From IMG/VR virus record IMGVR_UViG_3300026085_000093, positions 32,001 to 96,000 of that record: a stretch of 64,000 bases of DNA. One strand, 5' to 3'. The stretch's first letter is position 1. Every line of letters begins with the position of its first letter. The notes below the pieces were generated by a model. It saw nothing but the letters and a program-made list of their open reading frames with translations. It did not search any database and was not told where the DNA came from. The stretch comes from a virus (taxonomy: Duplodnaviria; Caudoviricetes). The position numbers were made by a program, and so were the translations under genes. Below are positions 6,143 to 37,162 of this stretch, in pieces.

Positions 6143-6143
6143 C

Positions 6144-6422
6144 ATGAAAAGTCCTATAAATGAACTACAACAACTAATGATTATCACCAGTGAAGAATGT
6201 GGCGAATTAATCCAAGTTTGTAGCAAAATTACGAGAAAGTATAAAAACGCTGGACAAGTTAATAAAGAATGGCGGCAGAAATTATTAGAAGAACTTGGCG
6301 ATGTACAGTGTATGATTGAACTTATGATTGATCATGGAATTGTTAATCATGTTGAAATTGCTAAACGCTCTAATGTAAAGCGTGAAAAATTAAAAAAGTG
6401 GAGTACTATAATCAATGAGTGA
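6144..6422 (+). CDS. mazG: MazG-like nucleotide pyrophosphohydrolase
   Basis: SEECGEL ... EELGDV acidic motifs; ATG 6144 just after the polB stop. Confidence 0.8.
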   Translation: MKSPINELQQLMIITSEECGELIQVCSKITRKYKNAGQVNKEWRQKLLEELGDVQCMIELMIDHGIVNHVEIAKRSNVKREKLKKWSTIINE

Positions 6423-6666
6423 AGAATCAAAACTTATTCTTATTACAGACTTTATAGAACAAAAGTTACGCAAAGAAAAAGAACTAGAATATTATCTAGA
6501 AGAACTCCAAAAATTACAAACCAAGATTGGATACTTACGTAGAGAAGTTGATCTAACTAACACTATAATTAACTTGATTAAACATGAGCAGGTTTATGAC
6601 ATTAAAGACAATATGTTAGAAAATAACAAGGATAAACTAATAGGGAGCAATGAAGAAATATCTTAG
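6415..6666 (+). CDS. Hypothetical coiled-coil protein
   Basis: Overlap-coupled ORF, 83 aa. Confidence 0.75.
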   Translation: MSEESKLILITDFIEQKLRKEKELEYYLEELQKLQTKIGYLRREVDLTNTIINLIKHEQVYDIKDNMLENNKDKLIGSNEEIS

Positions 6667-6919
6667 AAGACTTTTTATAGCATTTAGTATTTTCATAAAT
6701 GTTATACTTGGAGGCAGGATTAATCAAACATTTAGTGCAAGGAACTGGCAAAGAAAACGTGACAATAAAATAAATCTAGTGTATATTATTAATACAATAT
6801 TTAGGAATAATGATCACTGTTGGGAAAGTTGGGTAAAATGGACAATAATAAATGGTGCAATAAAAAGGTATGATGAAGAAATGGGTTTTGATAGAAAGAG
6901 GAGGCATTGGTACGAATGA
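6650..6919 (+). CDS. Hypothetical protein
   Basis: GGAG RBS, 89 aa, coupled to its neighbours. Confidence 0.7.
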   Translation: MKKYLRRLFIAFSIFINVILGGRINQTFSARNWQRKRDNKINLVYIINTIFRNNDHCWESWVKWTIINGAIKRYDEEMGFDRKRRHWYE

Positions 6920-7341
6920 AAGTAGGATTTACCGCATCGACCTTCGATTTACTTCACGCCGGGCATATACAAATGCTACGTGAAGCAAAAGAACAGTGTG
7001 ACTATCTTATATGCGGATTACAAATGGATCCCAGTGTAGATAGGCCAGAAAAGAATCCACCTGTACAAACAATAGTGGAACGTTATACACAACTCAAAGG
7101 AGTTAGTTATGTAAATGAAATAATTCCTTATGCAACTGAACAAGACTTAGAAGATATCTTGACAATGTATCATATTGATGTTAGAATACTAGGTGAAGAG
7201 TATCGTGAAAAGGATTTTACTGGCAAGGATATTTGCAAGAAGCGGGGTATCCAGCTACATTTCAATAAAAGAGATCACCGCTTCTCAAGCAGCGATTTAA
7301 GAAAACGAGTATGCGAAAGGGAAAGAAATGCCACTACCTGA
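6916..7341 (+). CDS. Cytidylyltransferase (glycerol-3-phosphate cytidylyltransferase/TagD-like)
   Basis: FTASTFDLLHAGH (HxGH), C-terminal RxxxxSSS; ATGA overlap at 6916. Confidence 0.88.
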   Translation: MKVGFTASTFDLLHAGHIQMLREAKEQCDYLICGLQMDPSVDRPEKNPPVQTIVERYTQLKGVSYVNEIIPYATEQDLEDILTMYHIDVRILGEEYREKDFTGKDICKKRGIQLHFNKRDHRFSSSDLRKRVCERERNATT

Positions 7342-7495
7342 AGGACGTAAAGCACTAACTGATCAAGATATGGTAATCTTGCTACACAATATAGCAAGAG
7401 ATTTAGAAAACACAGACCTTAGACTTACAGCAGATAGGTTTAGTGAACTAGCCAAAGCAGCAAGCGAAGCACAGCATAGGGCGAAGCAAGGATGA
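7328..7495 (+). CDS. Small hypothetical protein (55 aa; not in track)
   Basis: MPLPEGRKALTDQDMVILLHNIARD...QG*; tiles the gap with coupled overlaps. Confidence 0.65.
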   Translation: MPLPEGRKALTDQDMVILLHNIARDLENTDLRLTADRFSELAKAASEAQHRAKQG

Positions 7496-7647
7496 TACGA
7501 AATACTGATCCAACATGTGATGAACTTAGAAAAATTTTTATAGAAAATGGATTACAATTTTATATCAAAAAAGAAAAGAAGGGTATTGTAAAAGTACACT
7601 TTATAACTAGAGAGGAAGAAAATGATGTGGACACTGTTGATAATTAG
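7492..7647 (+). CDS. Small hypothetical protein (51 aa; not in track)
   Basis: ATGA overlap; MIRNTDPTCDELRKIFIENG...VDN*. Confidence 0.6.
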   Translation: MIRNTDPTCDELRKIFIENGLQFYIKKEKKGIVKVHFITREEENDVDTVDN

Positions 7648-7783
7648 TTCACTTGTAGATATTAATGAATACAAAGTTACAAGATTTAATGATTATCCTA
7701 CAGAAAAACAATGCAGCATTAATGCAGCAGTTCTTGAAGCATTGTTTACAGAAGGAGAAAAGGCGGTATGCATAAATGAATAA
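7622..7783 (+). CDS. Small protein with hydrophobic N-terminus and two Cys (53 aa; not in track)
   Basis: GAGG RBS; MMWTLLIISSLV...QCS...AVCINE*. Confidence 0.6.
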   Translation: MMWTLLIISSLVDINEYKVTRFNDYPTEKQCSINAAVLEALFTEGEKAVCINE

Positions 7784-8492
7784 GTTTATTTTTGATGTCG
7801 ACGGAACACTAACTCCAAGTAGACAAACTATCGATCCTGAGTTCAACAAATTCTTTTTTGATTTTGTAACAACTAATGATGTATATTTGATTACAGGCAG
7901 TGACAAAGATAAAACAGTTGAACAAATTGGTAATGTTTTGTTTTGTACAGCAAAAGTTGTTTATAATTGTTCTGGAAACGATGTTTGGAGTCACGGTGTT
8001 AATGTAAAAACCAATGACTGGACGGCACCAAAAGAACTTATGGATCTAATGCATGGTTGGCTACAAGCAAGTAATTTTCCTTTACGCACAGGTAACCACA
8101 TCGAAGTGCGTCCAGGTTGTGTTAACTTTAGTATAGTTGGACGTAACTGCACACTAGGCGAACGTAAATTATATATTAAACACGATCTCGAAAGTAGAGA
8201 ACGTGAAAGTATTGCTTATCAAATTAACACAGAATTTGAAAACATAACAGCAAAAGTAGGAGGAGAAACAGGTATTGATATCTATCCTACAGGTTGTGAC
8301 AAATCACAAATTATTAATGATTTTAACGACCATGACAAACTAATCTTTTTTGGCGATAGACAAGAACCTGGTGGTAATGACGAACCATTATCAACTGCGA
8401 TTGCCAAGAGAGGCAATGGTAAATCCTATCATGTCAAAGACTGGAAGGATACAATGGAGATCTTAAATGAAAGTTATGTTAACAGGCCATAG
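7776..8492 (+). CDS. HAD-family phosphomannomutase (eukaryote-type PMM)
   Basis: FDVDGTLT, NFSIVGRN, GGETGIDI, FFGD...GGND as in PMM-type HAD IIB enzymes. Confidence 0.85.
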   Translation: MNKFIFDVDGTLTPSRQTIDPEFNKFFFDFVTTNDVYLITGSDKDKTVEQIGNVLFCTAKVVYNCSGNDVWSHGVNVKTNDWTAPKELMDLMHGWLQASNFPLRTGNHIEVRPGCVNFSIVGRNCTLGERKLYIKHDLESRERESIAYQINTEFENITAKVGGETGIDIYPTGCDKSQIINDFNDHDKLIFFGDRQEPGGNDEPLSTAIAKRGNGKSYHVKDWKDTMEILNESYVNRP

Positions 8493-9243
8493 AGGCTTTA
8501 TTGGGAGTCATTTACTAAAAAGACTTACAAAAAAACATAGTGTTGTAGGGTTTGATCTTAAGGACGGTTGGGATAGAGACAAACTTAACAACAGCCAAGA
8601 TCTAACAACTTGTGACCTAAAAGAAGAATTTGATTTAATTATACACCTAGCAGGAAAAAGTGGTGTTCGTGAATCAATGAAGGATCCTGCAGGTTATTGG
8701 CTTCATAATGTAGAAGTCACCAAAAGACTTTTAGAACGCTATCCAGACACACGTATGTTGATTGCAAGTTCAAGTTCAGCATATGAGCCACATCTAAATC
8801 CATATGCAGCAAGCAAGTATATCGTAGAAGAAGCAGCATCATGTTATTCCAATACGCTATGTATGAGATTCCATACAGTTTATTCTGATAATCCTCGAAA
8901 AGGTATGTTTATGCAAAAGTATCTAGATGGAGAACTTGAATATGTTACAAACCATTACAGAGATTTTATACATATTGAAGATTTATGCGATGCAATAGAA
9001 TTATGTATGAATAGCAAGTATAAAGGAGAAATTGATATAGGTACAGGACATCCTTTTCGTATCCGTGACTTTGTAGAAGATTTGCCCATCCGTCTAAATA
9101 CCCCAAACGAAAGACAATGGACTTGTGCAAATACGGAAAAAATTAAAACACTAGGCTTTAAACCTAAATACTCAGTAGAAAAACTATTGACAAACAGCAG
9201 ATTAGGCAATATAATAGAATTTAACAATGGAGAAACAGTATGA
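8467..9243 (+). CDS. NAD-dependent epimerase/dehydratase (extended SDR)
   Basis: TGHRGFIG, HLAG, SSS, YAASK, RDFIHI. Confidence 0.92.
   Translation: MKVMLTGHRGFIGSHLLKRLTKKHSVVGFDLKDGWDRDKLNNSQDLTTCDLKEEFDLIIHLAGKSGVRESMKDPAGYWLHNVEVTKRLLERYPDTRMLIASSSSAYEPHLNPYAASKYIVEEAASCYSNTLCMRFHTVYSDNPRKGMFMQKYLDGELEYVTNHYRDFIHIEDLCDAIELCMNSKYKGEIDIGTGHPFRIRDFVEDLPIRLNTPNERQWTCANTEKIKTLGFKPKYSVEKLLTNSRLGNIIEFNNGETV
9187..9215 (+). promoter_or_regulatory. Perfect-consensus sigma70 promoter upstream of the clamp/TGT-like pair
   Basis: TTGACA(9187)-17 nt-TATAAT(9210), then GGAG and ATG 9240. Confidence 0.85.
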
Positions 9244-9968
9244 AAGATATCTTACAAGATGTTGTGTCGCACACACATAGTCTCGGTTTTATTACAACAT
9301 TAAAAGTTGTTGCAGAACAAGAGACTAGTATCGAAAGTATGGCAGAAGATAGAAGTGTTGTACTTAGTGCAACAACTCATTCGCCTGTGTCGGAATTTGT
9401 AGGTACATTTGGTATGCCAGATTTAAATAAACTTGCATATCATTTGAAGAACCCAGAATACCAGGACAAAGCAAAAATTGATGTGGTACAGGAAGAACGC
9501 AACGGAGAAATTATTCCAACACATATTCATTTTGAAAATGAAGTTGGCGACTTCCAAAACGACTATCGCTTTATGAATAAAGCAATTATCGAAGAAAAAT
9601 TAAAAAGTGTTAAATTCAAAGGTAGCACATGGGATGTAGAATTTACTCCAAGTGTTGCAGCAATTGCACGTATGAAACTAATGGCTGGTGCTCATTCAGA
9701 AGAACCAGTATTCCAGGTCAAAACAGAAGATGGAAATCTAAACTTTTACTTCGGTGACTTGAATACACACGCAGGTAAGTTTACATTCCAACACGATGTA
9801 GGTGGAACCTTGCAACACACTTGGGCATGGCCAGTTGCGCAAACTATTTCTATTTTAGGACTAGATGGCGATAAGAAAATTAGCATCACAGATCAAGGTG
9901 CTATGATGATTACAGTAGACAGTGGTATGGCCAAGTATGACTATATCCTGCCAGCACAAAGTAAATAA
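9240..9968 (+). CDS. Putative DNA polymerase sliding clamp (T4 gp45-like)
   Basis: 242 aa, two-domain beta/alpha pattern and size typical of gp45/PCNA-like clamps, C-terminal YILPA; replication-gene context. Fold-level call. Confidence 0.6.
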   Translation: MKDILQDVVSHTHSLGFITTLKVVAEQETSIESMAEDRSVVLSATTHSPVSEFVGTFGMPDLNKLAYHLKNPEYQDKAKIDVVQEERNGEIIPTHIHFENEVGDFQNDYRFMNKAIIEEKLKSVKFKGSTWDVEFTPSVAAIARMKLMAGAHSEEPVFQVKTEDGNLNFYFGDLNTHAGKFTFQHDVGGTLQHTWAWPVAQTISILGLDGDKKISITDQGAMMITVDSGMAKYDYILPAQSK

Positions 9969-11425
9969 TGAATACAAATTTAACTGCAACACAAAATGAC
10001 TATGCTGTTTTTCTGCCTGCGTTGAGTGGCTTTTATGCTACTTACGTGGGCAAACAGCGTTTTGAAAACTATGTTGATCCTGCTAGAATACCAAGCAATT
10101 TAAATAATGGCGTTGAAAGTCTTAACTATCTAAATAAAGATCAAGGACAGTTTCAATATAAGTGGACATTGTACTCAGCAGGACATGCTGACTTAGATAC
10201 TACAAAACATGCACCTAAGGAAGATATGGTGCGTAACAGAGATAGAGCAAACACTTGGCTACTTGGTGACTCAGGTGGCTTCCAGATTGGTAAGGGTGTT
10301 TGGGAAGGTGACTGGAAAGATCCAAACTGTCCAAAAGCACAAAAGAAACGTGATGGTGTATTGCGTTGGATGGATGCTTATATGGATTATGGTATGATAC
10401 TTGATATTCCCGCCTGGGTTGCACGTTCACCTGCAGGTGCAAAAGCAACAGGCATTAGTACATATGCAGAAGCAGTTAAAGCAACACGTATTAATAATGA
10501 TTATTGGATGAAGCATCGTACAGGTGCCTGTAAGTTTTTGAACGTACTACAAGGCGAAAATCATGCAGATGCAGATGACTGGTACGATCAAATGAAAGAC
10601 TACTGTGATCCAAAAAAATATGAAGATCATTTTAACGGATGGTCAATGGGTGGACAAAATATGTGCGATGTACACCTTGCTCTTAAACGTGTTGTTTCAC
10701 TACGTTTTGACGGATTGCTTGAAAAGGGCAAACATGATTTTATGCACTTCTTAGGAACTTCAAAACTTGAGTGGGCTACACTACTAACAGACATTCAACG
10801 AGCAGTGCGCAAATATCATAACGAAAACTTTACTATCACATTTGATTGTGCTAGTCCTTTCCTTGCAACTGCTAATGGACAAATCTACTGTGAACTGGAA
10901 ACAGAAGACAGAAGTAAATGGGTATATCGAATGGTGCCAAGCATTGACGATAAAGCACTAGCAAACGATACTACTCCGTTTAGTCAAGCATTTGTAAGAG
11001 AAGGAAAACACCCTAGTTTCTTAGATTCACCAATAACAACAGGATTACAAGCCAAAGATATTTGTATCTATGGTCCGGGTGATCTAAATAAAATAGGCAA
11101 AGAAGGCAAGACCTCATGGGACAGTTTTTCATATGCTGTTATGATGGGTCATAATGTATGGATGCACATTAACGCAGTGCAGGAAGCAAACCGCCAATAT
11201 GATGCAGGTATTATTCCTAATATGTTAATACAAGAAAAGTTTGATAGAATTGCGTTTAGAGATATTGTTGATGCAATTTTTGAAACCGATAACAGACAAA
11301 AAGCCGAATCTCTCATTTTAGAATTTTCTAAATATTGGGACAGTATTATAGGTACTAGAGGCAATACAGGAAAGCGTATTGTAAATGCACAAACGCAATT
11401 CAACAATCTATTTGAGGAACTATAA
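9968..11425 (+). CDS. dpdA: tRNA-guanine transglycosylase-fold protein, probable DNA 7-deazaguanine transglycosylase (DpdA-like)
   Basis: TGT motifs DSGGFQ, ILD, VLQG, SMGG, HFLG, FDCASP; clustered with queD/folE/queE-like genes. The CxCxxC zinc site is absent. Confidence 0.78.
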   Translation: MNTNLTATQNDYAVFLPALSGFYATYVGKQRFENYVDPARIPSNLNNGVESLNYLNKDQGQFQYKWTLYSAGHADLDTTKHAPKEDMVRNRDRANTWLLGDSGGFQIGKGVWEGDWKDPNCPKAQKKRDGVLRWMDAYMDYGMILDIPAWVARSPAGAKATGISTYAEAVKATRINNDYWMKHRTGACKFLNVLQGENHADADDWYDQMKDYCDPKKYEDHFNGWSMGGQNMCDVHLALKRVVSLRFDGLLEKGKHDFMHFLGTSKLEWATLLTDIQRAVRKYHNENFTITFDCASPFLATANGQIYCELETEDRSKWVYRMVPSIDDKALANDTTPFSQAFVREGKHPSFLDSPITTGLQAKDICIYGPGDLNKIGKEGKTSWDSFSYAVMMGHNVWMHINAVQEANRQYDAGIIPNMLIQEKFDRIAFRDIVDAIFETDNRQKAESLILEFSKYWDSIIGTRGNTGKRIVNAQTQFNNLFEEL

Positions 11426-11607
11426 TGATGGGACATAAAGAACATTTAGTTGAACTGAAAAGAAAACATAGAAAACTAGATGAAGAAATTATTGAACTTG
11501 AAAAATCGTATGTTGTAGATGACGAAATTAGAAAATTAAAAACAAAAAAACTTTGGTATAAAGATGAAATTCATAGACTGGAGAATATAATTGCGTTCAG
11601 AGAATGA
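11425..11607 (+). CDS. DUF465/YdcH-like small coiled-coil protein
   Basis: L..KH..LD..I...E....D..I..LK..KL..KDEI pattern. Confidence 0.7.
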   Translation: MMGHKEHLVELKRKHRKLDEEIIELEKSYVVDDEIRKLKTKKLWYKDEIHRLENIIAFRE

Positions 11608-11767
11608 AATTAGATTAGAAGCATTACAAATGGCCCTAGAAGAAATTGAAAAAATCATTGACAGTATGCATAAAAACAATTATACTAATGAAGAAATTAA
11701 TGAATACAACAAAAAACGTTGGGACATTTGGAACGAAATGTATAAGGTAAAAAATGGCAAAGGTTGA
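11591..11767 (+). CDS. Small hypothetical protein (58 aa, TTG start; not in track)
   Basis: (M)RSENEIRLEALQMALEEIEKIIDSMHK...KG*; fills the gap. Confidence 0.55.
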   Translation: MRSENEIRLEALQMALEEIEKIIDSMHKNNYTNEEINEYNKKRWDIWNEMYKVKNGKG

Positions 11768-12068
11768 AGAAACAGTAGCAGCCCTAAAGGGTATACCTAC
11801 AAAAGATGAATTAGTTGCATTGTTAGAAAAGCAAGTCGTTGAAGTAACTTTTAATAAATTAGACGGCACTGAAAGAGTAATGCCTTGTACTCTTATGCCT
11901 TCATTCTTTCCAGATCCAAAGAAAGATACAACACAAAAACACGAAAAAAATGTTGTTGTGTGGGCAATTGAATCAAACGCTTTTAGAAGTTTTAGGTACG
12001 ATCGTGTTAAAAAAGTAGAAGTTATTCAATATGGCAACGGCGGCAACGAATGGGAGGCTCAATATTAA
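11754..12068 (+). CDS. WYL_2/DUF2693-like SH3-type beta-barrel protein
   Basis: VTFNKLDGTERVM..TL ... VVW.....FRSFRYD signature of T4-like phage WYL_2 proteins. Confidence 0.7.
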   Translation: MAKVEETVAALKGIPTKDELVALLEKQVVEVTFNKLDGTERVMPCTLMPSFFPDPKKDTTQKHEKNVVVWAIESNAFRSFRYDRVKKVEVIQYGNGGNEWEAQY

Positions 12069-12622
12069 TGAATAGAGATTATTCTACAGGTTCTGCAGAT
12101 GATGCTATTTACTTTATCGGTAACGAAGTAGAACGCACACCTGCATTTGGCTTAAAAACTTTGTTTATTACAGGCAAACAGCCTTTAGAAGAAATTAAAG
12201 GCATTGCTAATGTGAATAAAATCAAGCATTTGTTTTTTGGTTCTAATCATAGTTTTAAACCCGAGACTAGTGAAGATTGGGACTGGTGGGAATCGATGAT
12301 CAAGGATTGTCTAGATGAAGGTTACTATTGCAGTTTAGATATTCCTATTGCACTTGCAGAAGAATTTCTCGAAAGTGGTTTGACAGAATACGAAAATTTT
12401 ATTCCACAACTAAGAGTTCCTATTCCATATATTAAACTATGGAATTATAACACTATGTTAAAAATCGATGATAAAGATTTTAAGGCAACTAATCCAGGTG
12501 TTTGGTGTCATAGTTTACACGACTTAATGGATAGGAAAAAATTTACTGACTGGTCTAATTATGCATCAGATGAAATTATTGAGTTGACAACTATCGAAAA
12601 TGGTACTATAGTAAATGAGTAA
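12068..12622 (+). CDS. Hypothetical protein inside the deazaguanine cluster
   Basis: TAATG overlap at 12068; FIGNEVERTPAFGLKTLF...HLFFGSNHSF; no family recognised. Confidence 0.8.
   Translation: MNRDYSTGSADDAIYFIGNEVERTPAFGLKTLFITGKQPLEEIKGIANVNKIKHLFFGSNHSFKPETSEDWDWWESMIKDCLDEGYYCSLDIPIALAEEFLESGLTEYENFIPQLRVPIPYIKLWNYNTMLKIDDKDFKATNPGVWCHSLHDLMDRKKFTDWSNYASDEIIELTTIENGTIVNE
12584..12612 (+). promoter_or_regulatory. Sigma70-type promoter directly before the queD-like gene
   Basis: TTGACA(12584)-17 nt-TATAGT(12607); ATG at 12615 implies a near-leaderless transcript or use of a downstream ATG. Confidence 0.6.
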
Positions 12623-13076
12623 CAACAAAGAACCCGAGCGCTATTATGATTGGATGCTTTGGAAAATGCGACAGGAAGATAATAAATTGGCAAATAGTTT
12701 AGAAAATGCAAAACGTAGTATTTGGGTAACATTCCGTAAAGAAGGTATCCATTTGTATCCTGCGGCAAAAGACGACCCGGCACTTGCAACAGGTGGTTGG
12801 GATGATGTAAGTTTCTTAGGTGTAGCACATAGACACATCTTTCATTTCAAAGTACAAATTCAAGTAACACACAATGATAGAGATATTGAATTTATTCAGT
12901 TCAAGCGTTGGCTCGAAAGTCTTTATGATGATAAGGTTATTGAACTTAATCACAAGTCTTGCGAAATGATCGCAGACGACTTGTATATCCAGATTAACAA
13001 CAAATATCCCGGCCGCTTTGTTGTTATTGATGTCGCCGAAGATGGCGAAAATGGCTGTCAAATTGTTTACCCATAG
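12615..13076 (+). CDS. queD: QueD-like T-fold enzyme (6-carboxytetrahydropterin synthase-like)
   Basis: HRHIFHF metal-binding His motif, IEFIQFK, SCEMIA (cf. T/SxExxA in PTPS/QueD); pathway context. Confidence 0.65.
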   Translation: MSNNKEPERYYDWMLWKMRQEDNKLANSLENAKRSIWVTFRKEGIHLYPAAKDDPALATGGWDDVSFLGVAHRHIFHFKVQIQVTHNDRDIEFIQFKRWLESLYDDKVIELNHKSCEMIADDLYIQINNKYPGRFVVIDVAEDGENGCQIVYP

Positions 13077-13094
13077 AAAAAAGGATTAAGGTAA

Positions 13095-13307
13095 ATGACT
13101 ATTACATTCAATCGTGACGCTTACAATAAAGTGTTTAATGATTTGGATAAATTCCGCGACTACTGTCGTTTCGAAGGAAAGGTCTTTAACGAGGCTGATT
13201 TATATAAAAAGGATTCGCCTATTTGGCAGTCTTATATTAAACATCAAAATTATATTCGTGCTAAGTCACGTAACGCAAGCCGAAGTTTTAACAATCGGAG
13301 AAACTAA
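13095..13307 (+). CDS. Hypothetical protein (70 aa)
   Basis: AAGG RBS; coupled to the next gene. Confidence 0.75.
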   Translation: MTITFNRDAYNKVFNDLDKFRDYCRFEGKVFNEADLYKKDSPIWQSYIKHQNYIRAKSRNASRSFNNRRN

Positions 13308-14356
13308 TGACAATTTACATTGTAGATATCGAAGCAGTTGATACACGCTACACAAAGCAATGGAAAGACTATCTTCCGAAGCAACTACAACGATCTACAA
13401 ACGAAAATGTAAAAGTCATTAGTGGTGGGGAAACGCCTCAGGCAACAACGCCTGGGGCATTTCTCAATTTTGGTGGAACTAATGTTTATAAGTCCAAACA
13501 ACTAGAAATTATAGGCGAAATGTTTTGCAAAGGGCAAATTCAAAGTGGAGATTATTTTTTATATACCGATGCTTGGAACCCTACTGTTATTCAGTTACGT
13601 TATATGGCAGAACTCTTGGACGTTGATGTTAGCATCGGCGGGCTTTGGCATGCTGGTAGTTATGACCCTCATGACTTTCTTGGCAGGTTAATTGGAGATA
13701 AACCGTGGGTACGTCATGCAGAACAGGCAATGTATGAATGTTACGATGATAACTTTTTTGCAAGTAATTTTCATATTGAATTATTTGCACAAAGTTTAGA
13801 CATTGATCCAGATAAAACACATCGTGTAGGCTGGCCTATGGAATATTTACGTAGTAGTTTAGATCAATACAAAGGTATGGAGAAGCGTAATCTTATTCTT
13901 TTCCCACATCGTCTTGCCCCAGAAAAACAAGTTGATGTATTCCATGATTTGAAACAGCAACTTCCGCAATATGAATTTGTTGTATGTCAAGAGCAAATGC
14001 TTTCTAAAAATGAATATCACAACTTGTTAGGAGAAGCAAAACTTGTGTTTAGTGCTAACTTACAAGAAACACTTGGTATTAGTTGGTACGAAGGCGCACT
14101 TGTTGATGCTATTCCTATGGTTCCTGATCGCCTTTCTTACAGTGAAATGGCATTGCCTGAATTTAAATATCCTAGCCAATGGACTGAAGATTATAGTGCA
14201 TATAGAAAACATAGAGGAGATATTGCTGCCAAGATTGTTGACTATATGGAAAACTACAATGACTATCTTATAAGTTTAGAAAAACAGCGTATTAGACTTA
14301 ACAAAGAATTTTTTGACGGAACAGAACTATACAGGAATATTGCAGATGGGCAATGA
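13307..14356 (+). CDS. GT-B glycosyltransferase (GT4-like)
   Basis: LWHAGSYD, ILFPHRLAPEKQ, LQETLGISWYEG (ExxGxxxxE donor-binding motif), PDRLSY. Confidence 0.8.
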   Translation: MTIYIVDIEAVDTRYTKQWKDYLPKQLQRSTNENVKVISGGETPQATTPGAFLNFGGTNVYKSKQLEIIGEMFCKGQIQSGDYFLYTDAWNPTVIQLRYMAELLDVDVSIGGLWHAGSYDPHDFLGRLIGDKPWVRHAEQAMYECYDDNFFASNFHIELFAQSLDIDPDKTHRVGWPMEYLRSSLDQYKGMEKRNLILFPHRLAPEKQVDVFHDLKQQLPQYEFVVCQEQMLSKNEYHNLLGEAKLVFSANLQETLGISWYEGALVDAIPMVPDRLSYSEMALPEFKYPSQWTEDYSAYRKHRGDIAAKIVDYMENYNDYLISLEKQRIRLNKEFFDGTELYRNIADGQ

Positions 14357-14666
14357 TGATGATTATATTTTTAGTGTAAGTACAGACCACACTTATTCAG
14401 TTAGCATAAGTGATATCACAACAACAACTATAGACACTAGTACATTTGATGATCTAATTACATTAGATGGAGATAACGGTATTACACTTATCATGGACGA
14501 TCCTGTTGATTTTGTAGATCAAATGCCTTCATTAGATAAAATAAAAGATATGTGTCAACATTATCCTGGCTTAAAAAAAGCTTTTAAAAACTTTGAATCA
14601 GTTTACAAAATGGTTCATCAAGACTATAAAGGTAATCACGAACCAAAAATAGAGGTACCATTTTAA
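14346..14666 (+). CDS. Hypothetical acidic protein
   Basis: ATG 14346 in the track ORF 14313-14666. Confidence 0.7.
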   Translation: MGNDDDYIFSVSTDHTYSVSISDITTTTIDTSTFDDLITLDGDNGITLIMDDPVDFVDQMPSLDKIKDMCQHYPGLKKAFKNFESVYKMVHQDYKGNHEPKIEVPF

Positions 14667-14893
14667 TGCAACATCCAATTGAAGAATGGATCAGACGTAT
14701 CAATGCAATGAAAGATTTATGCATACAAGCACATAGAGTGCGTAACGAATTTGCAGAAATCAGTTATAAACAATATGACGAATCTACTTGTAAGCACTTA
14801 CTAGAACAAGTTCAATCAATGGCAGCAGGTATTGCAAACGAAAAAATAACTGATATAAAAACTGAAATGGATGAGTGGAAAAAGAATGATTAA
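14666..14893 (+). CDS. Hypothetical protein (75 aa)
   Basis: TAATG coupling. Confidence 0.7.
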   Translation: MQHPIEEWIRRINAMKDLCIQAHRVRNEFAEISYKQYDESTCKHLLEQVQSMAAGIANEKITDIKTEMDEWKKND

Positions 14894-15467
14894 GAAACAT
14901 TATTATTCGTGGCAAGACGTAGAAAAGATGTGTGCAAGTATTGTCATGCAGATGTATAAAGATAATTGGCGTCCTGATTACATTGTAGGTATTACACGAG
15001 GTGGTAACATTCCTGCTACTATTATTAGTAACATGACAGGCATCCGTTGTGAAGCACTTAAAGTAAGTTTGCGTGATAACGGTAATGGCGAAAGCGAAAG
15101 CAACTGTTGGATGGCAGAAGATGCATTTGGATATGAAGATATGAAACTTCAAACCCATAACCAAGACATTCAAGCAAGTGCAAATGTTGATATTATCACT
15201 ATAGAAAACAAAAGTAATATCCTTATTGTAGACGATATTAACGACACTGGTGCAACATTTAACTGGATTGTTAATGACTGGCAAGCCAGTTGTTTACCTG
15301 ATCATGATCGATGGAGCAGAGTTTGGGACGAAAACGTTCGTTTCGCAACATTAACTGAAAACTTATCAAGTGCCTGCGGATTAGTGCGTTATTATGCACA
15401 CGAAATTAATAAAGCAGAAGAAAACGTTTGGTTAGTTTATCCTTGGGAGAATGTAAATGAGTACTGA
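14886..15467 (+). CDS. Type I purine phosphoribosyltransferase (Gpt/XGPRT-like)
   Basis: IVGITRGG, PRPP loop ILIVDDINDTGATF, W.VYPWE. Confidence 0.88.
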   Translation: MIKKHYYSWQDVEKMCASIVMQMYKDNWRPDYIVGITRGGNIPATIISNMTGIRCEALKVSLRDNGNGESESNCWMAEDAFGYEDMKLQTHNQDIQASANVDIITIENKSNILIVDDINDTGATFNWIVNDWQASCLPDHDRWSRVWDENVRFATLTENLSSACGLVRYYAHEINKAEENVWLVYPWENVNEY

Positions 15468-15708
15468 ATATAAAGAATATAGATGCAAGTATAAAGCAGA
15501 ATGGCCTGTAGACAAATTTGGCAGACTTGGTGGAATGTATAGCATGGCAGATCTTCCAGTTAAGGCATATGTCGAACTAGAAAGAGAAGGTCTTTTAGTA
15601 TCACAAGATAGCAAAAAAGAACTGTACGAAATTAAAGATGCTGAAAAACAATTTATCAAACGTGTAGTTCCTTTTAGTGATGTAACAGATATTGAAGAAA
15701 TATCTTGA
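15457..15708 (+). CDS. Hypothetical protein (83 aa)
   Basis: GGGAG RBS; coupled ORF. Confidence 0.7.
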   Translation: MSTEYKEYRCKYKAEWPVDKFGRLGGMYSMADLPVKAYVELEREGLLVSQDSKKELYEIKDAEKQFIKRVVPFSDVTDIEEIS

Positions 15709-15733
15709 CAAAAACCTAAATACATGGTATATT
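15705..15733 (+). promoter_or_regulatory. Sigma70-type promoter upstream of folE, with an embedded CTAAATA late-like motif
   Basis: TTGACA(15705)-17 nt-TGn-TATATT(15728); CTAAATA at 15716-15722. Confidence 0.75.
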
Positions 15734-15772
15734 AAATTAATAGACATCCCCGTCTATAACTCGGAGAAATAA

Positions 15773-16456
15773 ATGAGCAAATCAAAACAAATTACAGCCC
15801 GCTTGCAAGATGCAGGCATTCGCTATTGGGCCGGCGACAACATTTCAGAAGTCCTACAAGCAGGCGACAAAGAAGAACTTATTGAAGATGCTACAGTAGC
15901 ATTTGAAGGTGTACTAGATGCACTACTAATCGATCGACATAACGATCCTAATTCACAAGGTACTGCAAGGCGTCTTGCTAAGATGTACTTTAATGAAATT
16001 ATGGCAGGACGATATGATCCTATTCCAAGTGCTACAGCATTTCCAAACCATGTAGATGAAGGTTACAAAGGTATGTTAGTTGTAAGAAGCGAACTTAAAA
16101 GTATGTGTTCGCATCATCATCAACCAGTAAACGGTGTAGCATATATTGGTATTATTGCCGCTGATACACTTATCGGACTTTCAAAGTATACACGTATTGC
16201 ACAATGGTGTGCTAGACGTGGTACACTACAAGAAGAACTTAATAATGTTATTGCAAATGAAATACAGAAAGCAACAGGAAGTCCTAACGTAGGTGTGTAC
16301 ATTCAAGCAACACATGGTTGTTGTGAAAATAGAGGTATTGGTGCACACAGCAGTCTTACACAAACAACTGTACTACGTGGTGCATTCTATGATGATCCTA
16401 GTACTAAGAAAGAGTTTATGGATAATATAAAACTACAACAGGAATTTGCTTGCTAA
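15773..16456 (+). CDS. folE: GTP cyclohydrolase I
   Basis: SMCSHH, GLSKYTRI, LQEEL, HGCCENRG. Confidence 0.96.
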   Translation: MSKSKQITARLQDAGIRYWAGDNISEVLQAGDKEELIEDATVAFEGVLDALLIDRHNDPNSQGTARRLAKMYFNEIMAGRYDPIPSATAFPNHVDEGYKGMLVVRSELKSMCSHHHQPVNGVAYIGIIAADTLIGLSKYTRIAQWCARRGTLQEELNNVIANEIQKATGSPNVGVYIQATHGCCENRGIGAHSSLTQTTVLRGAFYDDPSTKKEFMDNIKLQQEFAC

Positions 16457-16562
16457 TGTTTGAAATTAATTATTCTTTTACACAACCTTACTACAATACA
16501 TTCATTGTTAATCTGCAACCTAAATACGATCTAGCAGAAAGATTTATCAAGGCAAAAGCAGA

Positions 16563-17201
16563 ATGTCAAGGTTAATTGCATTTGGTTGTAGTTTGACATA
16601 CGGCGATAATTTAAAAGATATATGGCCGCACAATGAAGAGTCGAGCAAACTTGCTTGGCCTTCTGTTGTTTCTAAACTATTAAATTTAGAATGCATTAAC
16701 AAAGGAGTAAGTGGTTATTCAAATAAAGAAATACTTAACGATTTGTTGACATTTGAATACCAAAAAGGTGACACAGTTATTTGTTTATGGACATTTCATC
16801 AGAGACATGCAATACTTACTGAAGAATTATCAACACCTGCAATTTCAATTAAACCGTGGGAAATGAAAAACAATAAAGCAATTAAGTCATATTTTAAAAA
16901 TCTTTACACAGATTATGATTCTAATTGGACAACTAACTTATACATGAGAGTAGCGAAATCTTACTTTGACGAGCATAACATAATTAATTACCATGCTAAT
17001 GCAAAACCATGGATCTTCCAACAGGAAAAATGGAATAACATAAATTTTATTCCAGTAGAAGACATTGATACAATTCGAAACAAAGAAAGCAGTGATTTGG
17101 CAAAAGACAAACGTCATCCAGGTTACAGAGTGCATAAAGAGTTTGGTACAAATATTGCAAATTATATAAAGGAACAGACACATGAAATTACGTTACAGTG
17201 A
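16563..17201 (+). CDS. SGNH/GDSL-like hydrolase or acyltransferase
   Basis: FGCSLTYG (block I Ser), GVSGYSN, C-terminal DxxHPG. Confidence 0.6.
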   Translation: MSRLIAFGCSLTYGDNLKDIWPHNEESSKLAWPSVVSKLLNLECINKGVSGYSNKEILNDLLTFEYQKGDTVICLWTFHQRHAILTEELSTPAISIKPWEMKNNKAIKSYFKNLYTDYDSNWTTNLYMRVAKSYFDEHNIINYHANAKPWIFQQEKWNNINFIPVEDIDTIRNKESSDLAKDKRHPGYRVHKEFGTNIANYIKEQTHEITLQ

Positions 17202-18075
17202 AGCATTTTATAGTGTACAAGGTGAGGGTAAATACGTAGGAGTACCTAGCGTATTTTTACGTACATTTGGTTGCAACTTTCGTTGTATGAATTTTGGATT
17301 ACCTAAGGACAAAGATCGTTGGGAGCAACACGCAGAAGGCAATCGGTACAATCCAGAAGTAAAGGCACTACTTGACGCAGGCGTACACGAAACTACAGAA
17401 AAATTTGAAGATTTACCTATTATTCACACAGGCTGTGATACATATGCTAGTATCTATCCAGAGTTTAAACACTTTAACAAACTTGCAGAAGTAGACGAAG
17501 TTGTAGATCATTTGATTAGTTTATTGCCAGAAGGCAAATGGACACAAGACAATGGACAAGATATTCATTTGATTATGACAGGTGGTGAACCATTACTTGC
17601 ATGGCAACGACTTTACGTAGAGTTGTTTGAACATCCGAAAATGAAAGATTTAAAAAATGTCACGTTTGAAACAAACACTACACAATTTTTACATGATGAT
17701 TTGTTCGATTACATCAACAATAATGACAGAATTGAATGGACATTTAGTTGTTCTCCTAAACTTTCCGTCAGCGGAGAAACTTGGGAGTCAGCTATCAAAC
17801 CTGATGTCCTGCGGGATTACGCTCGTTGTGACAGCAGTTCTGTTTATCTTAAATTTGTTGTTGCTGATATGGATGATGTTGATGAAGTTAGTAGAGCAGT
17901 TAGTGAATATCGTGCAGCGGGTGTGGAATGCCCTGTCTATCTTATGCCGCTTGGCGGTCGCTCGGAAGGGTACAACATCACGGTACAAGAGGTGGCGAAG
18001 CTCTGTATGGAACGAGGCTGGAGGTTCACTCCGAGACTCCACATTAGCCTATTCGGAAATGCCTGGGGAACATAA
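17182..18075 (+). CDS. queE: 7-carboxy-7-deazaguanine synthase (radical SAM) with an expanded cluster loop
   Basis: FYSVQGEG..G.PSVFLRTFGCNFRC...GCDT, TGGEP, ETN, SPK, PRLH. Confidence 0.92.
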   Translation: MKLRYSEAFYSVQGEGKYVGVPSVFLRTFGCNFRCMNFGLPKDKDRWEQHAEGNRYNPEVKALLDAGVHETTEKFEDLPIIHTGCDTYASIYPEFKHFNKLAEVDEVVDHLISLLPEGKWTQDNGQDIHLIMTGGEPLLAWQRLYVELFEHPKMKDLKNVTFETNTTQFLHDDLFDYINNNDRIEWTFSCSPKLSVSGETWESAIKPDVLRDYARCDSSSVYLKFVVADMDDVDEVSRAVSEYRAAGVECPVYLMPLGGRSEGYNITVQEVAKLCMERGWRFTPRLHISLFGNAWGT

Positions 18076-18540: not shown

Positions 18541-19776
18541 ATGACGAATGAAATAGAAGATTTATACAAAAATTTTTGTGTCCATCCTTTTGTTAAAATG
18601 TTTGTGACAACAACAGGGCATATGAAAGCCTGTTGTTATGCAAAACAATTAGATTCAGACGATATTAATATTCTAGGCAAGGATGTCGATGAAGTATGGA
18701 ACAGCAAGACTTTACAAAAATTAAGACACAAATTCAATCAAAGAATCATCCCTAAAAATATCTGTAAAAGTTGTATTGAAAGTGAAGAACAGGGAATCAT
18801 TTCAAACCGACAGTATGAAAATCATAAATGGAAATCATTAGCCGATTATTATTATAAAAATGCCCATACAGTTGTTCCTAGTCCTCTGAGTTTTGATTTG
18901 AGAATGAGCAACGAATGTAACTTGCAGTGCGTGATGTGCCTCCCTACATTGAGCAATCAAATTGCAAAGAACATGCTAGAATATAATAAATTCGGCAAAA
19001 GCAATCCTTATACCAATAGTAAAGACCTAGAAGTTCTTTCTACATCATCTAATAATTTCAACCAGCGATTTGTTGACCATATACTTGAAAATGCAAAAAG
19101 AACTCAAGAGATTGTGGCAGTCGGCGGCGAGCCGTTTGTGATGAAGGGATTTACATCTTTGATAGAAGAATTAGTGAATAGAAAAGAAAGCGGTCATATA
19201 AAGGTACACATAATTTCAAATGGCACAATTATCAAAGAATCATGGATAGAAAAATACCTTACAAAGTTTAAGCATGTAAACTTATCAATAAGTTTGGATG
19301 CTACTGGAAAAGTTTTAGAATATGTTCGATACCCTAGTTCTTGGTCTGCATTGGAAAGCAAGATTTTAAGATCTAAAAAAATATGCGACCAATATGAGAA
19401 TTTTCAAATTACCTTAGAGCCTACAATACAATTGCTAAATCTAAAAGATTTGCCAAATTTGCTTGACTTTATTAAACAAAATAAGTTTCCTTTTAATACA
19501 ACATTTTTAGATTGGCCAGAGCCATTACATTTTGCCAACTCACCCATTGATTACAGAATTGAAATTGTAAAAAAAATTGAAACTTTCTTACCAGAGTTAA
19601 AAACTTTAGACCTAATAGACGACTACAACTGGTTAGATTGGATTAAAACGGAGCCACAAAAAACTTTATCAGATAAACAACGTGATTATTTTAGATACAT
19701 GTTGGATTATTTTGACAGTACAAGAGCAACAAAATTCTTAGATCTTTATCCTGAATTTGGTTTTTTAAAAGATTGA
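18541..19776 (+). CDS. Radical SAM protein with N-terminal SPASM/twitch-like domain
   Basis: FCVHPF...KACC...CKSC, then CNLQCVMC, VGGEP, SNG, SLD. Confidence 0.9.
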   Translation: MTNEIEDLYKNFCVHPFVKMFVTTTGHMKACCYAKQLDSDDINILGKDVDEVWNSKTLQKLRHKFNQRIIPKNICKSCIESEEQGIISNRQYENHKWKSLADYYYKNAHTVVPSPLSFDLRMSNECNLQCVMCLPTLSNQIAKNMLEYNKFGKSNPYTNSKDLEVLSTSSNNFNQRFVDHILENAKRTQEIVAVGGEPFVMKGFTSLIEELVNRKESGHIKVHIISNGTIIKESWIEKYLTKFKHVNLSISLDATGKVLEYVRYPSSWSALESKILRSKKICDQYENFQITLEPTIQLLNLKDLPNLLDFIKQNKFPFNTTFLDWPEPLHFANSPIDYRIEIVKKIETFLPELKTLDLIDDYNWLDWIKTEPQKTLSDKQRDYFRYMLDYFDSTRATKFLDLYPEFGFLKD

Positions 19777-19801
19777 CATTTGAGTGTTAATGTGTTATAT
19801 T
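19773..19801 (+). promoter_or_regulatory. Sigma70-type promoter
   Basis: TTGACA(19773)-17 nt-TGn-TATATT(19796); GGAG before ATG 19835. Confidence 0.8.
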
Positions 19802-35872: not shown

Positions 35873-37162
35873 CTAAGATAATATTATAACAGTCCTTACA
35901 AAACTTTCATAGAACAAGTCACTAAGGAAATATCCATAAATGACTGGGCTCGTATCGTAATTTCGTAGAAAATATCCTAGTACCATTGCAATCAGTATAC
36001 ATGCTATCATCCATTCGTGTATAGGAAAGATAACAACACTTATTACACTTATAGTAGTTAGGATCAATGTATTTGCATATACTCTATATTGCTTATAAAG
36101 ATACACTATTTGACCTAACAGATTAAAACCATACCAACTTAAAAGTAAACATATCAATGTCACTACAGGTATAAAGTAAAGTATAGAAGACAGTTTGTTT
36201 ACTGTGTTTTCTATATTAAATTGATAACCACTTTCTAACATCAAGTAGTATACAATTACTTCACTACCCGTAATAGGTATAGCAAGGATTAGCAAAGGCA
36301 ACAAACTAGATAATGCTCCGCTATTGTTAGCAGCCTCTGCGGCAGCAATGCTTTTAAGTACAGGCTTTTTAAAAAAGCGTTTTACAATGCCTGCACTAGC
36401 ATAACTACCAAGAATATTTGTTATGCCAGGAATAAGACCGCACCAAAATCCAATAAAGCTACCTAACAGGCTTGGACCAAATGTGCCTTTTCCTATTGCA
36501 TACTTACTTATCTTGCTAGGTTGGGAAATAGAAATGTTATGAATTTTTAGTATCTCAGGAAACAGATATAATCCAATCATTACACTTGCAAAAGGTATTC
36601 CTAAACTAAGATAAAAATTGTTAAAAACAAGAAACTGATCAAATGTAATTGGATCAATTCCTTGATGTGATATTAATCCTCCAAAACAAAACAGTAATAA
36701 TGTCAAAAGTTTATTCTGTTTTGTAAAAAATGTAATCATACATATTGCAACTAGTATTACAATTGTTTGTATAATACTGTTATAAAATTTGAATACATGC
36801 ATAATACTAGGCAAGGCAACTAAAAACAAACACATTGCAAATGCTACACCAACGGTGCTACTAATTGCGTTACTTGTTACAGCAAGGCCGCCTGCGCCTT
36901 TTTGAAACATTTTATGTCCGTATCTTGCTGTGCTAATTGCAGTAGCATCTCCGGGTATACCGTATAAGATTGCTGTAACACTATTAGTATAGTTAGTAGT
37001 AATAAGTATAGCAACATAACACGCCATAATATTAACCGCACTAGTTGACGCTAAAAACGGGTATAAGACACCAATAGCAACAAATGGACCAGCACCAGGT
37101 ACTAAACCGGCTAAAAGACCAGTTAGTAAACCGATACCACTCCAAATTCCTAATTCAATCAT
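35873..37162 (-). CDS. tctA: Tripartite tricarboxylate transporter large subunit
   Basis: GL.PG.G, YGIPGDATA..T, G.IPG, AAEAANNS; about 11-12 TM helices. Confidence 0.85.
   Translation of the reverse strand: MIELGIWSGIGLLTGLLAGLVPGAGPFVAIGVLYPFLASTSAVNIMACYVAILITTNYTNSVTAILYGIPGDATAISTARYGHKMFQKGAGGLAVTSNAISSTVGVAFAMCLFLVALPSIMHVFKFYNSIIQTIVILVAICMITFFTKQNKLLTLLLFCFGGLISHQGIDPITFDQFLVFNNFYLSLGIPFASVMIGLYLFPEILKIHNISISQPSKISKYAIGKGTFGPSLLGSFIGFWCGLIPGITNILGSYASAGIVKRFFKKPVLKSIAAAEAANNSGALSSLLPLLILAIPITGSEVIVYYLMLESGYQFNIENTVNKLSSILYFIPVVTLICLLLSWYGFNLLGQIVYLYKQYRVYANTLILTTISVISVVIFPIHEWMIACILIAMVLGYFLRNYDTSPVIYGYFLSDLFYESFVRTVIILS

Follow-up and report, generated by a model that had tools for sequence, protein, structure and literature searches.

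A stretch of 64,000 nucleotides from a virus of the class Caudoviricetes (positions 32,001 to 96,000 of the IMG/VR record IMGVR_UViG_3300026085_000093; the whole stretch is called the window here) carries a set of 7-deazaguanine genes with a gene for a GT4-like glycosyltransferase (GT) in their midst. This region is read here as a DpdL-type 7-deazaguanine DNA-modification module, of which the GT would be a dedicated member, and the probability of this reading is put at roughly one half. The evidence that carries it is gene linkage, as the GT lies inside the FolE/QueE/DpdL/DpdA cluster in 17 of the 18 GT lineages sampled. The genes on which the argument turns are the following, with positions counted in the window.

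9968-11425, + strand: DpdA-like transglycosylase (LGDSGGFQ motif, profile-profile match); an open reading frame (ORF) of 60 aa and a WYL_2 protein come next
12615-13076, + strand: DpdL (T-fold, QueD paralogue; signature LGVAHRHIF)
13095-13307, + strand: small ORF of 70 aa, without a family match in Pfam or PHROG
13307-14356, + strand: GT-B, GT4-like glycosyltransferase (AlphaFold2 model, Foldseek); two small ORFs come next
15773-16456, + strand: FolE, GTP cyclohydrolase I (Pfam E 1.3e-37; NCBIfam FolE E 3e-38); a GDSL-like ORF comes next
17182-18075, + strand: QueE-like radical S-adenosylmethionine (SAM) enzyme, the 7-carboxy-7-deazaguanine (CDG) synthase (PHROG 2076 E 7.5e-50; NCBIfam QueE, partial; 32% identity to the QueE of PA5oct); a small ORF comes next

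An earlier, sequence-only reading of the window had proposed from these genes a sugar-decorated deazaguanine in DNA. Every gene that it named lies where it was placed, on the + strand, and its family calls were right except for one, a "QueD-like" gene. Its call of a tRNA-guanine transglycosylase (TGT) or DpdA-like protein is borne out by the LGDSGGFQ motif and by an hhalign match to DpdA of the ACP17/X1 type, its call of a GT-B, GT4-like enzyme by the AlphaFold2 (AF2) model, the Foldseek matches and an E-x7-E motif, and its calls of FolE and QueE by the Pfam/NCBIfam and PHROG matches. A phosphomannomutase (PMM), an epimerase and a nucleotidyltransferase, which it had placed just upstream, are indeed present (6907-9243).

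Linkage of the glycosyltransferase to the deazaguanine pathway

The lineages in which the GT lies inside the cluster include the cultured phages PA5oct, ACP17, Phosso, X1/BUDD and BCSR5. DpdL directly abuts the GT in seven lineages other than that of the window (PA5oct, ACP17, Phosso and the loci L085, L094, L096 and L098), and the stop codon of one gene often overlaps the start codon of the next. The gene order is DpdA-GT-DpdL in the PA5oct-like Pseudomonas jumbo phages, DpdA-GT-DpdL-QueE in Acidovorax phage ACP17 and DpdL-GT-x-FolE in Sinorhizobium phage Phosso. Single-protein scans with four representatives gave the IMG/VR loci L101-L107, in all seven of which the GT is at most 6 kb from QueE and/or FolE, with DpdL at most 3 kb away in six; the contigs L088, L089 and L097 are too short for their gene context to be judged. 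A distant paralogue of the GT (22-26% identity) lies directly upstream of DpdA in Xanthomonas phage X1, Burkholderia phage BCSR5 and L102, and L085 has it there as a second copy. DpdL, QueE and FolE again stand beside this paralogue, except that DpdL was not found in L102 and QueE was not found in L085. Altogether the linkage spans at least three DpdA groups unconnected by BLAST, indicating that the GT is tied to the pathway and not to one enzyme lineage. Among GenBank phages the GT is present in 22 records and DpdL in 29, and the two occur together in 17, where 0.013 would be expected (hypergeometric P = 5e-54); these records are not independent, and the lineage count of 17/18 is the fairer figure.

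The same association is seen at close range. In a close set of 80 related IMG/VR loci, with GT identities of 79-97%, DpdL, the 70-aa ORF and the GT follow one another in that order in all 80. Most of these loci also keep, in the same order, a sliding clamp, DpdA, a homologue of the protein at 12050-12622, a phosphoribosyltransferase (PRTase), FolE and QueE. Of the tabulated cluster genes, few are as well conserved as that of the GT, which is at 79-83% identity in relatives whose DpdA stands at 67-80%. The 70-aa ORF is present throughout the close set (80/80, 46-91% identity) and was not recognised in other lineages.

The exception among the 18 lineages is that of PhiXhv-12, Ep026 and Ep032, in which a homologue of the GT accompanies GlmS and a BshB-like deacetylase and there are no dpd genes (L084, PhiXhv-12, 5861-9095). 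In these jumbo phages of Xanthomonas and Erwinia, the block may serve a different kind of amino-sugar modification. The sequence-only reading had named synteny of the GT with dpdA and queE across phages as a point in favour of its proposal and a GT independent of que/dpd genes as a point against it. As the synteny is strongly positive (80/80 loci, 17/18 lineages) and such independence is confined to this one distant lineage, the GT very probably works in the deazaguanine pathway.

The GT might instead have its target outside that pathway and merely share an early block of replication and modification genes. Such a target could be another DNA base, the envelope or lipopolysaccharide of the host (in superinfection exclusion), or a protein such as DpdA, the clamp or a host factor. 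Sugar-nucleotide and GT clusters of jumbo phages have been read as envelope-modifying (Iyer et al. 2021), the PhiXhv-12-type homologue is encoded beside GlmS and a deacetylase, and the sugar genes upstream of the cluster are specific to the window's clade. Against this, the linkage to DpdL, QueE, FolE and DpdA outlasts extensive rearrangement over 17 lineages and several DpdA types, and translational coupling of the GT with DpdL is common. High conservation of the acceptor (N-terminal) domain among phages whose hosts differ widely speaks against host-specific envelope targets, and no ThyA-type hydroxymethylase (PF00303) that would prepare a pyrimidine acceptor such as 5-hydroxymethylcytosine (hmC) or 5-hydroxymethyluracil (hmU) is matched in the record. 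A target outside the pathway is, therefore, considered unlikely.

The pathway also exists without the enzyme. phiST and its relatives have DpdL but no GT, as do Rhizobium phage RHph_I1_18, Aeromonas phage Ahp1, the Vibrio phages Bakedbeans and D479, Synechococcus phage BUCT-ZZ01 and others, and phiST DNA carries plain 7-deazaguanine as the deoxynucleoside (dDG; Cui et al. 2023, PMC10516641). Judged by phiST and RHph_I1_18, the GT looks like an add-on that has been gained and lost on a common DpdL pathway. Some clusters hold two GTs: in L085 (10001-11032 and 13582-14679) one is beside DpdL and the other beside DpdA, and L096 has an extra epimerase and a second GT of 620 aa (5643-7505). Such double GTs hint at di- or poly-glycosylation or at sugar diversity.

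Fold and family of the glycosyltransferase

As a single sequence the GT draws nothing from Pfam, PHROG or NCBIfam, nor from the PDB by phmmer. An alignment of 56 family members was the basis of the AF2 model and of the profile searches. The model (pLDDT 96.4, pTM 0.93) has two Rossmann-like domains with a cleft between them, which is the GT-B fold. Its top Foldseek matches in the PDB are the retaining GT4/GT5 enzymes glycogen synthase, BshA, PglA, MshA and GlgM, with E 1e-10 to 1e-8, a probability of 1.00 and TM-scores of 0.6-0.7 for glycogen synthase, BshA, MshA and PglA, and its neighbours in AFDB and the Atlas are all GT1/GT4 proteins. The E-x7-E motif reads E254-TLGISWY-E262, with E262 kept in 56/56 homologues and E254 in at least 90%. 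Glycos_transf_1 (PF00534) is matched by 42 of the 56 homologues (best E 3e-8) and by the X1-type paralogues at 30-56 bits, above the cut-off, while the family profile finds the GT4 entries 8xsg (E 1.5e-4) and WlaC in the PDB. Close viral models are limited to that of the ACP17 protein (TM 0.92) and one further, unnamed model (TM 0.82); all other viral GTs are generic matches. The family is large, with 1,179 metagenomic clusters at 50% identity in an exhaustive search (E up to 1e-3). As judged from the modelled fold, the protein at 13307-14356 is a member of a phage-specific GT4-like subfamily of retaining type, predicted to use a nucleoside diphosphate (NDP)-sugar donor.

DpdL and the supply of CDG

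The gene at 12615-13076, the one that had been taken for QueD, is instead DpdL. Its product carries LGVAHRHIF (L-x3-H-R-H-x-F) and not the C-x3-H-G-H of QueD, a difference by which the two have been told apart (Cui, Hutinet et al., Nucleic Acids Research 2023, PMC10516641), and it has no Pfam match to the 6-pyruvoyltetrahydropterin synthase (PTPS) family. In an alignment it groups with CGPG_00067 of phiST and with the homologues in ACP17, PA5oct and Phosso, whereas canonical phage QueDs keep the Cys. It is 33% identical to CGPG_00067, the founding DpdL, 54% identical to the protein of Rhizobium phage RHph_I1_18 and 51-66% identical to the proteins of ACP17 (51%), PA5oct (60%) and Phosso. DpdL is a predicted CDG decarboxylase (Cui et al. 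2023, PMC10516641), and by its signature the window protein is likewise predicted to decarboxylate CDG. With DpdL in the place of QueD, the expected base is unsubstituted 7-deazaguanine.

A canonical QueD (PF01242) was not found in the 236-kb source record (CheckV completeness 66%), within which the window lies, or in five related records (29-72% complete). The enzyme is probably supplied by the host; alternatively, its gene may lie in the missing part of the record. Nor does the record contain a QueC above cut-off. Some 20 kb away, at 38059-38802 on the - strand, there is an ORF for a QueC-like PP-loop ATPase that scores 21.9 bits against PF06508 (cut-off 22) and E 3e-6 against a QueC-like PHROG. 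It has a QueC-like Cys-rich C-terminus, adjoins a radical SAM/SPASM gene (37155-38114, - strand) and has no homologue among GenBank phages. This ORF could encode a divergent QueC or a CDG-amide ligase.

Pteridine glycosides, too, are made with genes of these types, namely FolE, a PTPS/QueD paralogue with a T-fold and a GT-B enzyme. A glycosylated pterin, comparable to the biopterin glucosides of cyanobacteria, could conceivably arise from FolE, the PTPS-like T-fold protein and the GT alongside the deazaguanine route. DpdL, however, does not have the catalytic Cys found in PTPS and QueD; QueE and DpdA are there as well, and no sepiapterin-reductase-like gene was seen in the cluster by Pfam scans, making a pterin product very improbable.

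The DpdA-like transglycosylase and the clamp

The DpdA-like protein has no match in Pfam (TGT PF01702, DpdA PF23859), PHROG or NCBIfam, and no TGT was found in the PDB by its family profile. Its identity emerges from a comparison of profiles by hhalign, in which the window and PA5oct proteins align with DpdA of the ACP17/X1/BCSR5/L085 type at a probability of 92% (E 5e-7, 190 columns). The match spans the catalytic core with its D-S-G-G, LD-iP, QG and H-LG motifs. The feature neighbours of the protein in the Atlas are TGT and DpdA clusters, its PA5oct homologue (36% identity) is encoded directly upstream of the PA5oct GT, and the X1 counterpart is annotated as a queuine tRNA-ribosyltransferase. 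ACP17 has been treated as dpdA-encoding, and DpdA3 has been recognised only by HHpred (Cui et al. 2023, PMC10516641). A protein with a DSGA motif downstream of the GT in L103, L105 and L106 may be a further DpdA type, but hhalign gives this a probability of no more than 1%.

The C-terminal tail of the window DpdA (11380-11425), QFNNLFEEL, resembles that of the DNA polymerase (6095-6142), TFNSLFEFGV, and the dpdA gene directly follows the clamp gene. The likeness of the DpdA tail to the phage's own polymerase tail is found in three lineages and two DpdA types (LDELFE and LDDLFE in ACP17, LEELFG and LESLFG in X1); in the rest of the window's clade the DpdA tail is mostly acidic instead. The C-terminal tails of T4-type polymerases are assumed to bind the clamp. 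If those of DpdA do the same, base exchange may, by analogy, be tethered by the clamp at the replication fork.

The proposed pathway and the location of the sugar

In the pathway proposed here, FolE, QueD (probably that of the host) and QueE would make CDG, which DpdL would convert into 7-deazaguanine or a close derivative. The DpdA-like transglycosylase, with its polymerase-like tail and its gene behind that of the clamp, would swap genomic G for the deazaguanine base. The GT, which would be co-transcribed with DpdL, would use an NDP-sugar to glycosylate the deazapurine, be it ahead of its insertion or afterwards, and in the window's clade the donor would possibly derive from the upstream nucleotidyltransferase, PMM-like and epimerase genes. 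As the product, virion DNA would carry a glycosylated deazaguanine, by which sites containing G would be protected against nucleases. Such a product could account for the behaviour of PA5oct, whose DNA is sensed by END nucleases and resists G-site restriction enzymes, the responsible base being so far without a chemical identity. It could also account for the failure of dpdL and dpdA of ACP17, expressed without the GT, to produce dDG in E. coli, where the authors suggested that other enzymes may be needed (Cui et al. 2023, PMC10516641).

A number of points weigh against this reading. The decarboxylase activity of DpdL is a prediction of the literature only, and the QueC-like ORF at 38059-38802 raises the possibility that the end-point of the pathway may not be 7-deazaguanine. 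The window GT itself scores 13.7 bits against PF00534, under the cut-off of 26.4. It is acidic (pI 5.0; family median 5.7), a property that is uninformative as DpdA is acidic too, and, unlike DpdA, it has no polymerase-like tail and thus no pointer to DNA binding. Linkage of genes speaks for shared function or regulation and not for the identity of a substrate. The upstream sugar genes are conserved inside the window's clade only and do not belong to the conserved core. Finally, 7-deazaguanine has no hydroxyl group, which makes O-glycosylation of the T4 kind impossible.

The absence of a hydroxyl means that either N- or C-glycosylation or an unrecognised hydroxylation has to be assumed. As a general solution, a handle made by a hydroxylase was rejected, as ORFs resembling 2-oxoglutarate (2OG)-Fe(II) oxygenases occur in merely 4-6 of the 80 relatives and in neither the window genome nor other lineages, which again counts against the proposal. 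A precedent for the alternative is offered by HuiG, a glycosyltransferase of a GT4-type Pfam family, which glycosylates a free 7-deazapurine base with UDP-GlcNAc (uridine diphosphate N-acetylglucosamine) in the making of huimycin. The sugar of huimycin sits on the 2-amino group of the deazapurine. By this analogy an N-glycoside is plausible and a C-glycoside less likely.

The same precedent lends itself to a different view, in which the GT puts its sugar on an intermediate (free deazapurine or pterin) that is never incorporated into DNA, whether to make a huimycin-like molecule, to control a pool or for detoxification or sequestration, so that the DNA would carry plain dDG. HuiG does act on a free base, the GT is acidic and tailless, its tightest coupling is to DpdL, a small-molecule enzyme, and not to DpdA, and phiST attains full dDG without any GT. 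A by-product glycoside, on the other hand, would be of no obvious benefit to a lytic phage, yet the GT is highly conserved and kept in 17 lineages. Its paralogue abuts DpdA itself in X1, BCSR5 and L102, and the negative E. coli result with the ACP17 pair fits a GT that is on the pathway. Glycosylation confined to free intermediates is, for these reasons, regarded as rather unlikely.

What stands of the sequence-only proposal is the membership of the GT in the pathway, for which synteny speaks. Its other part, the placement of the sugar on DNA and not on a free base or intermediate, is weakened by the missing hydroxyl, by a linkage that does not decide between DNA and free base and by sugar genes confined to one clade. 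We infer the activity of DpdL, the sugar donor, the acceptor atom of an N- or C-glycoside and the location of the product from the genes, and a glycosylated deazaguanine in the DNA itself is the leading reading, at somewhat less than even odds. More tentative still is the full proposal that the virion DNA of the window's clade and of PA5oct, ACP17, Phosso, X1/BUDD and BCSR5 contains 7-deazaguanine with an N- or C-glycosidic sugar, made by the phage GT4 subfamily together with DpdL and diversified in some lineages by SPASM radical SAM enzymes, 2OG oxygenases and second GTs. In the full-text literature, no report was found of a glycosylated deazaguanine in DNA or of this GT. Enzymes acting on glycosyl groups are not mentioned by Cui et al. 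(2023, PMC10516641), and the deazaguanine system of PA5oct has been noted without the GT (Iyer et al. 2021).

Neighbouring genes and accessory enzymes

The other features of the region are as follows.

3443-6142, + strand: DNA polymerase; small ORFs come next
6907-7341, + strand: HIGH-motif nucleotidyltransferase (RfaE domain II / TagD-like); Pfam CTP_transf_like E 4e-15, PHROG 7878 E 2.7e-34, NCBIfam rfaE_dom_II E 4.7e-20 (under the family cut-off)
7776-8492, + strand: PMM-like HAD-IIB enzyme; Pfam PMM E 3e-24 over the full length, HAD-IIB
8467-9243, + strand: short SDR nucleotide-sugar epimerase/dehydratase; Pfam Epimerase E 5e-24, PHROG 540 (nucleotide-sugar epimerase) E 2e-49, NCBIfam GalE E 7e-17 (under the family cut-off)
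9240-9968, + strand: sliding-clamp homologue; 32-36% identity to PA5oct EST35_0314 and to a Phosso protein annotated as sliding clamp beta
12050-12622, + strand: conserved protein without a family; its likely true start gives 184 aa
14871-15467, + strand: purine-type PRTase; Pfam Pribosyltran E 3e-10, NCBIfam xanthine PRTase (N-terminal part) E 3.5e-10
18541-19776, + strand: twitch/SPASM radical SAM enzyme; NCBIfam N_Twi_rSAM E 1e-81

The three sugar-nucleotide genes upstream of the clamp may supply the donor of the GT in the window's clade, with the nucleotidyltransferase at 6907-7341 as a candidate NDP-sugar maker and clade-specific accessory. Within the close set the nucleotidyltransferase is seen in 52/80 loci, the PMM-like gene in 43/80 and the epimerase in 55/80, counts that contig ends keep low; from L069, L066, L070 and L073 the PMM-like gene is genuinely missing. 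Near the GT of the other lineages no member of the trio was found but for a single epimerase, in L096.

The PRTase is present in 77 of the 80 close loci, with homologues in L101 and, weakly, in PA5oct. It could recycle the guanine released by DpdA to GMP/GTP, GTP being the substrate of FolE, or make a deazapurine nucleotide. The protein at 12050-12622 has homologues in 74/80 close loci and 4399 metagenomic relatives; many of its residues are invariant, among them His, Trp and Asn-Pro-Gly motifs. Its homologues adjoin DpdA in ACP17 and L101 and are located elsewhere in PA5oct. No fold could be assigned to it (AF2 pLDDT 72; best Z 6.5, to generic alpha/beta folds; Foldseek E > 0.01), and it is a candidate for a missing component of the pathway.

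A radical SAM enzyme distinct from QueE, mostly of the SPASM/twitch kind, is found near DpdL and the GT in about seven lineages. The BLAST family of the protein at 18541-19776 provides it in L105 (3475-4386) and L098 (8917-9612), beside or between DpdL and the GT, and near them in L107 (4442-5362) and L104 (9753-10703); a different radical SAM enzyme stands between DpdL and the GT in L103 (4637-5989) and L106 (4643-6007). In the close set the SPASM enzyme of 18541-19776 is confined to 5 of the 80 loci. This second radical SAM enzyme may diversify the sugar or the base. In sister phages of the clade, the 2OG-Fe(II)-oxygenase-like ORFs and an ORF with a HIT domain are inserted in the cluster (L042, 8748-9290; L039, 14590-15153; L042, 12610-13023), none of them being present in the window genome. 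The deazaguanine cluster is a hotspot for accessory enzymes.

Sites resembling TTGACA-N17-TATAxT, with 11-12 of 12 positions matched, are located upstream of gene blocks at 9187-9215 (clamp/DpdA), 11658-11686 (WYL_2), 12584-12612 (DpdL/GT/PRTase), 15705-15733 (FolE) and 19773-19801 (next operon). The sigma-70-like match is 12/12 before clamp/DpdA and 11/12 before DpdL. The total of promoter-like sites in the window is not above the shuffled expectation, and the 11-12/12 matches are all correctly placed. Between DpdL and the PRTase gene there is no terminator-like site except a weak one at 13041.

The DNA polymerase is nearest to those of the T4-related jumbo phages Phosso, Atu_ph07, Vibrio phage 2.275.O and GAP32 (42-50% identity). 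By megablast the region has no match among GenBank phages. Marine and other metagenomes are very rich in relatives of the window phage, whose contigs reach about 357 kb. The window genome is that of a T4-related jumbo phage of an uncultured marine clade.

Comparison with known systems

The modification, if real, would be widespread, given about 1,180 GT clusters at 50% identity and the abundance of the window's clade. It would bear on the evasion of restriction and CRISPR, on artefacts in virome sequencing and on which phages are chosen for therapy, PA5oct being a candidate. The proposal is directly testable, as several carriers of the GT are in culture.

The nearest characterised system is the dDG system of phiST, built on DpdL and DpdA3 (PMC10516641), which shares with the window FolE, QueE, the DpdL signature, a divergent DpdA and the lack of a clear QueC. 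phiST differs in having no GT, a QueD of its own, a DpdA3 of 259 aa and plain dDG, whereas the window has a GT coupled to DpdL, a DpdA of 485 aa with a polymerase-like tail and no QueD that was found in the record. PA5oct (Wroclawvirus) and ACP17 share the module of the window, with DpdA, GT, DpdL and then QueE and with GT identities of 44% and 39%, respectively. They infect other hosts, have other genome backbones and lack the upstream sugar-nucleotide trio, and the DpdA of ACP17 is of a type with no BLAST link to that of the window.

Among glycosyltransferases that act on bases, the glucosylation of hmC in T4 offers a parallel in purpose, already drawn by the sequence-only reading: a phage GT-B enzyme working on a non-canonical base as camouflage against restriction. 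The T4 enzymes AGT and BGT O-glycosylate the CH2OH of hmC on DNA, whereas the window has no hydroxymethylase and its expected acceptor is a purine analogue without a hydroxyl. Kinship with AGT or BGT was rejected, neither being among the top 50 PDB or viral fold matches. The queuosine glycosyltransferases QTMAN/GTDC1 and QTGAL are comparable as GT4-class enzymes that act on a 7-deazaguanine derivative within a nucleic acid, in this case tRNA. QTMAN, however, glycosylates the hydroxyl of the cyclopentenediol of queuosine, which the expected base of the window does not have. A bacterial cluster containing QTMAN_N is among the nearest cellular neighbours of the GT in shape, at a TM-score of 0.77 equal to that of BshA. 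Kinship was rejected here as well: QTMAN_N (PF12038) is not matched, at E up to 1-10, in the protein, in 56+8 homologues or in the genome, GTDC1 is not in the Swiss-Prot top 30, and the TM-score of 0.77 for the bacterial QTMAN_N cluster is no better than that of BshA-type GT4 enzymes.

HuiG of Kutzneria albida is likened to the GT by its reaction alone. It is a GT4-type enzyme (PF13439 family) that places GlcNAc on a 7-deazapurine base from the preQ0/CDG pathway, which indicates that a deazapurine base need not have a hydroxyl to accept a glycosyl group. It belongs to actinobacterial secondary metabolism, acts on the free base without a DpdA, and its product is not in nucleic acid. To our knowledge, the glycosylated bases of DNA are all pyrimidines, namely hmC, hmU and 5-hydroxycytosine derivatives, and the deazaguanines of DNA all carry small C7 groups or none. 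A sugar on deazaguanine would thus, if true, be a new class of purine hypermodification, with an N- or C-glycosylation chemistry new to DNA.

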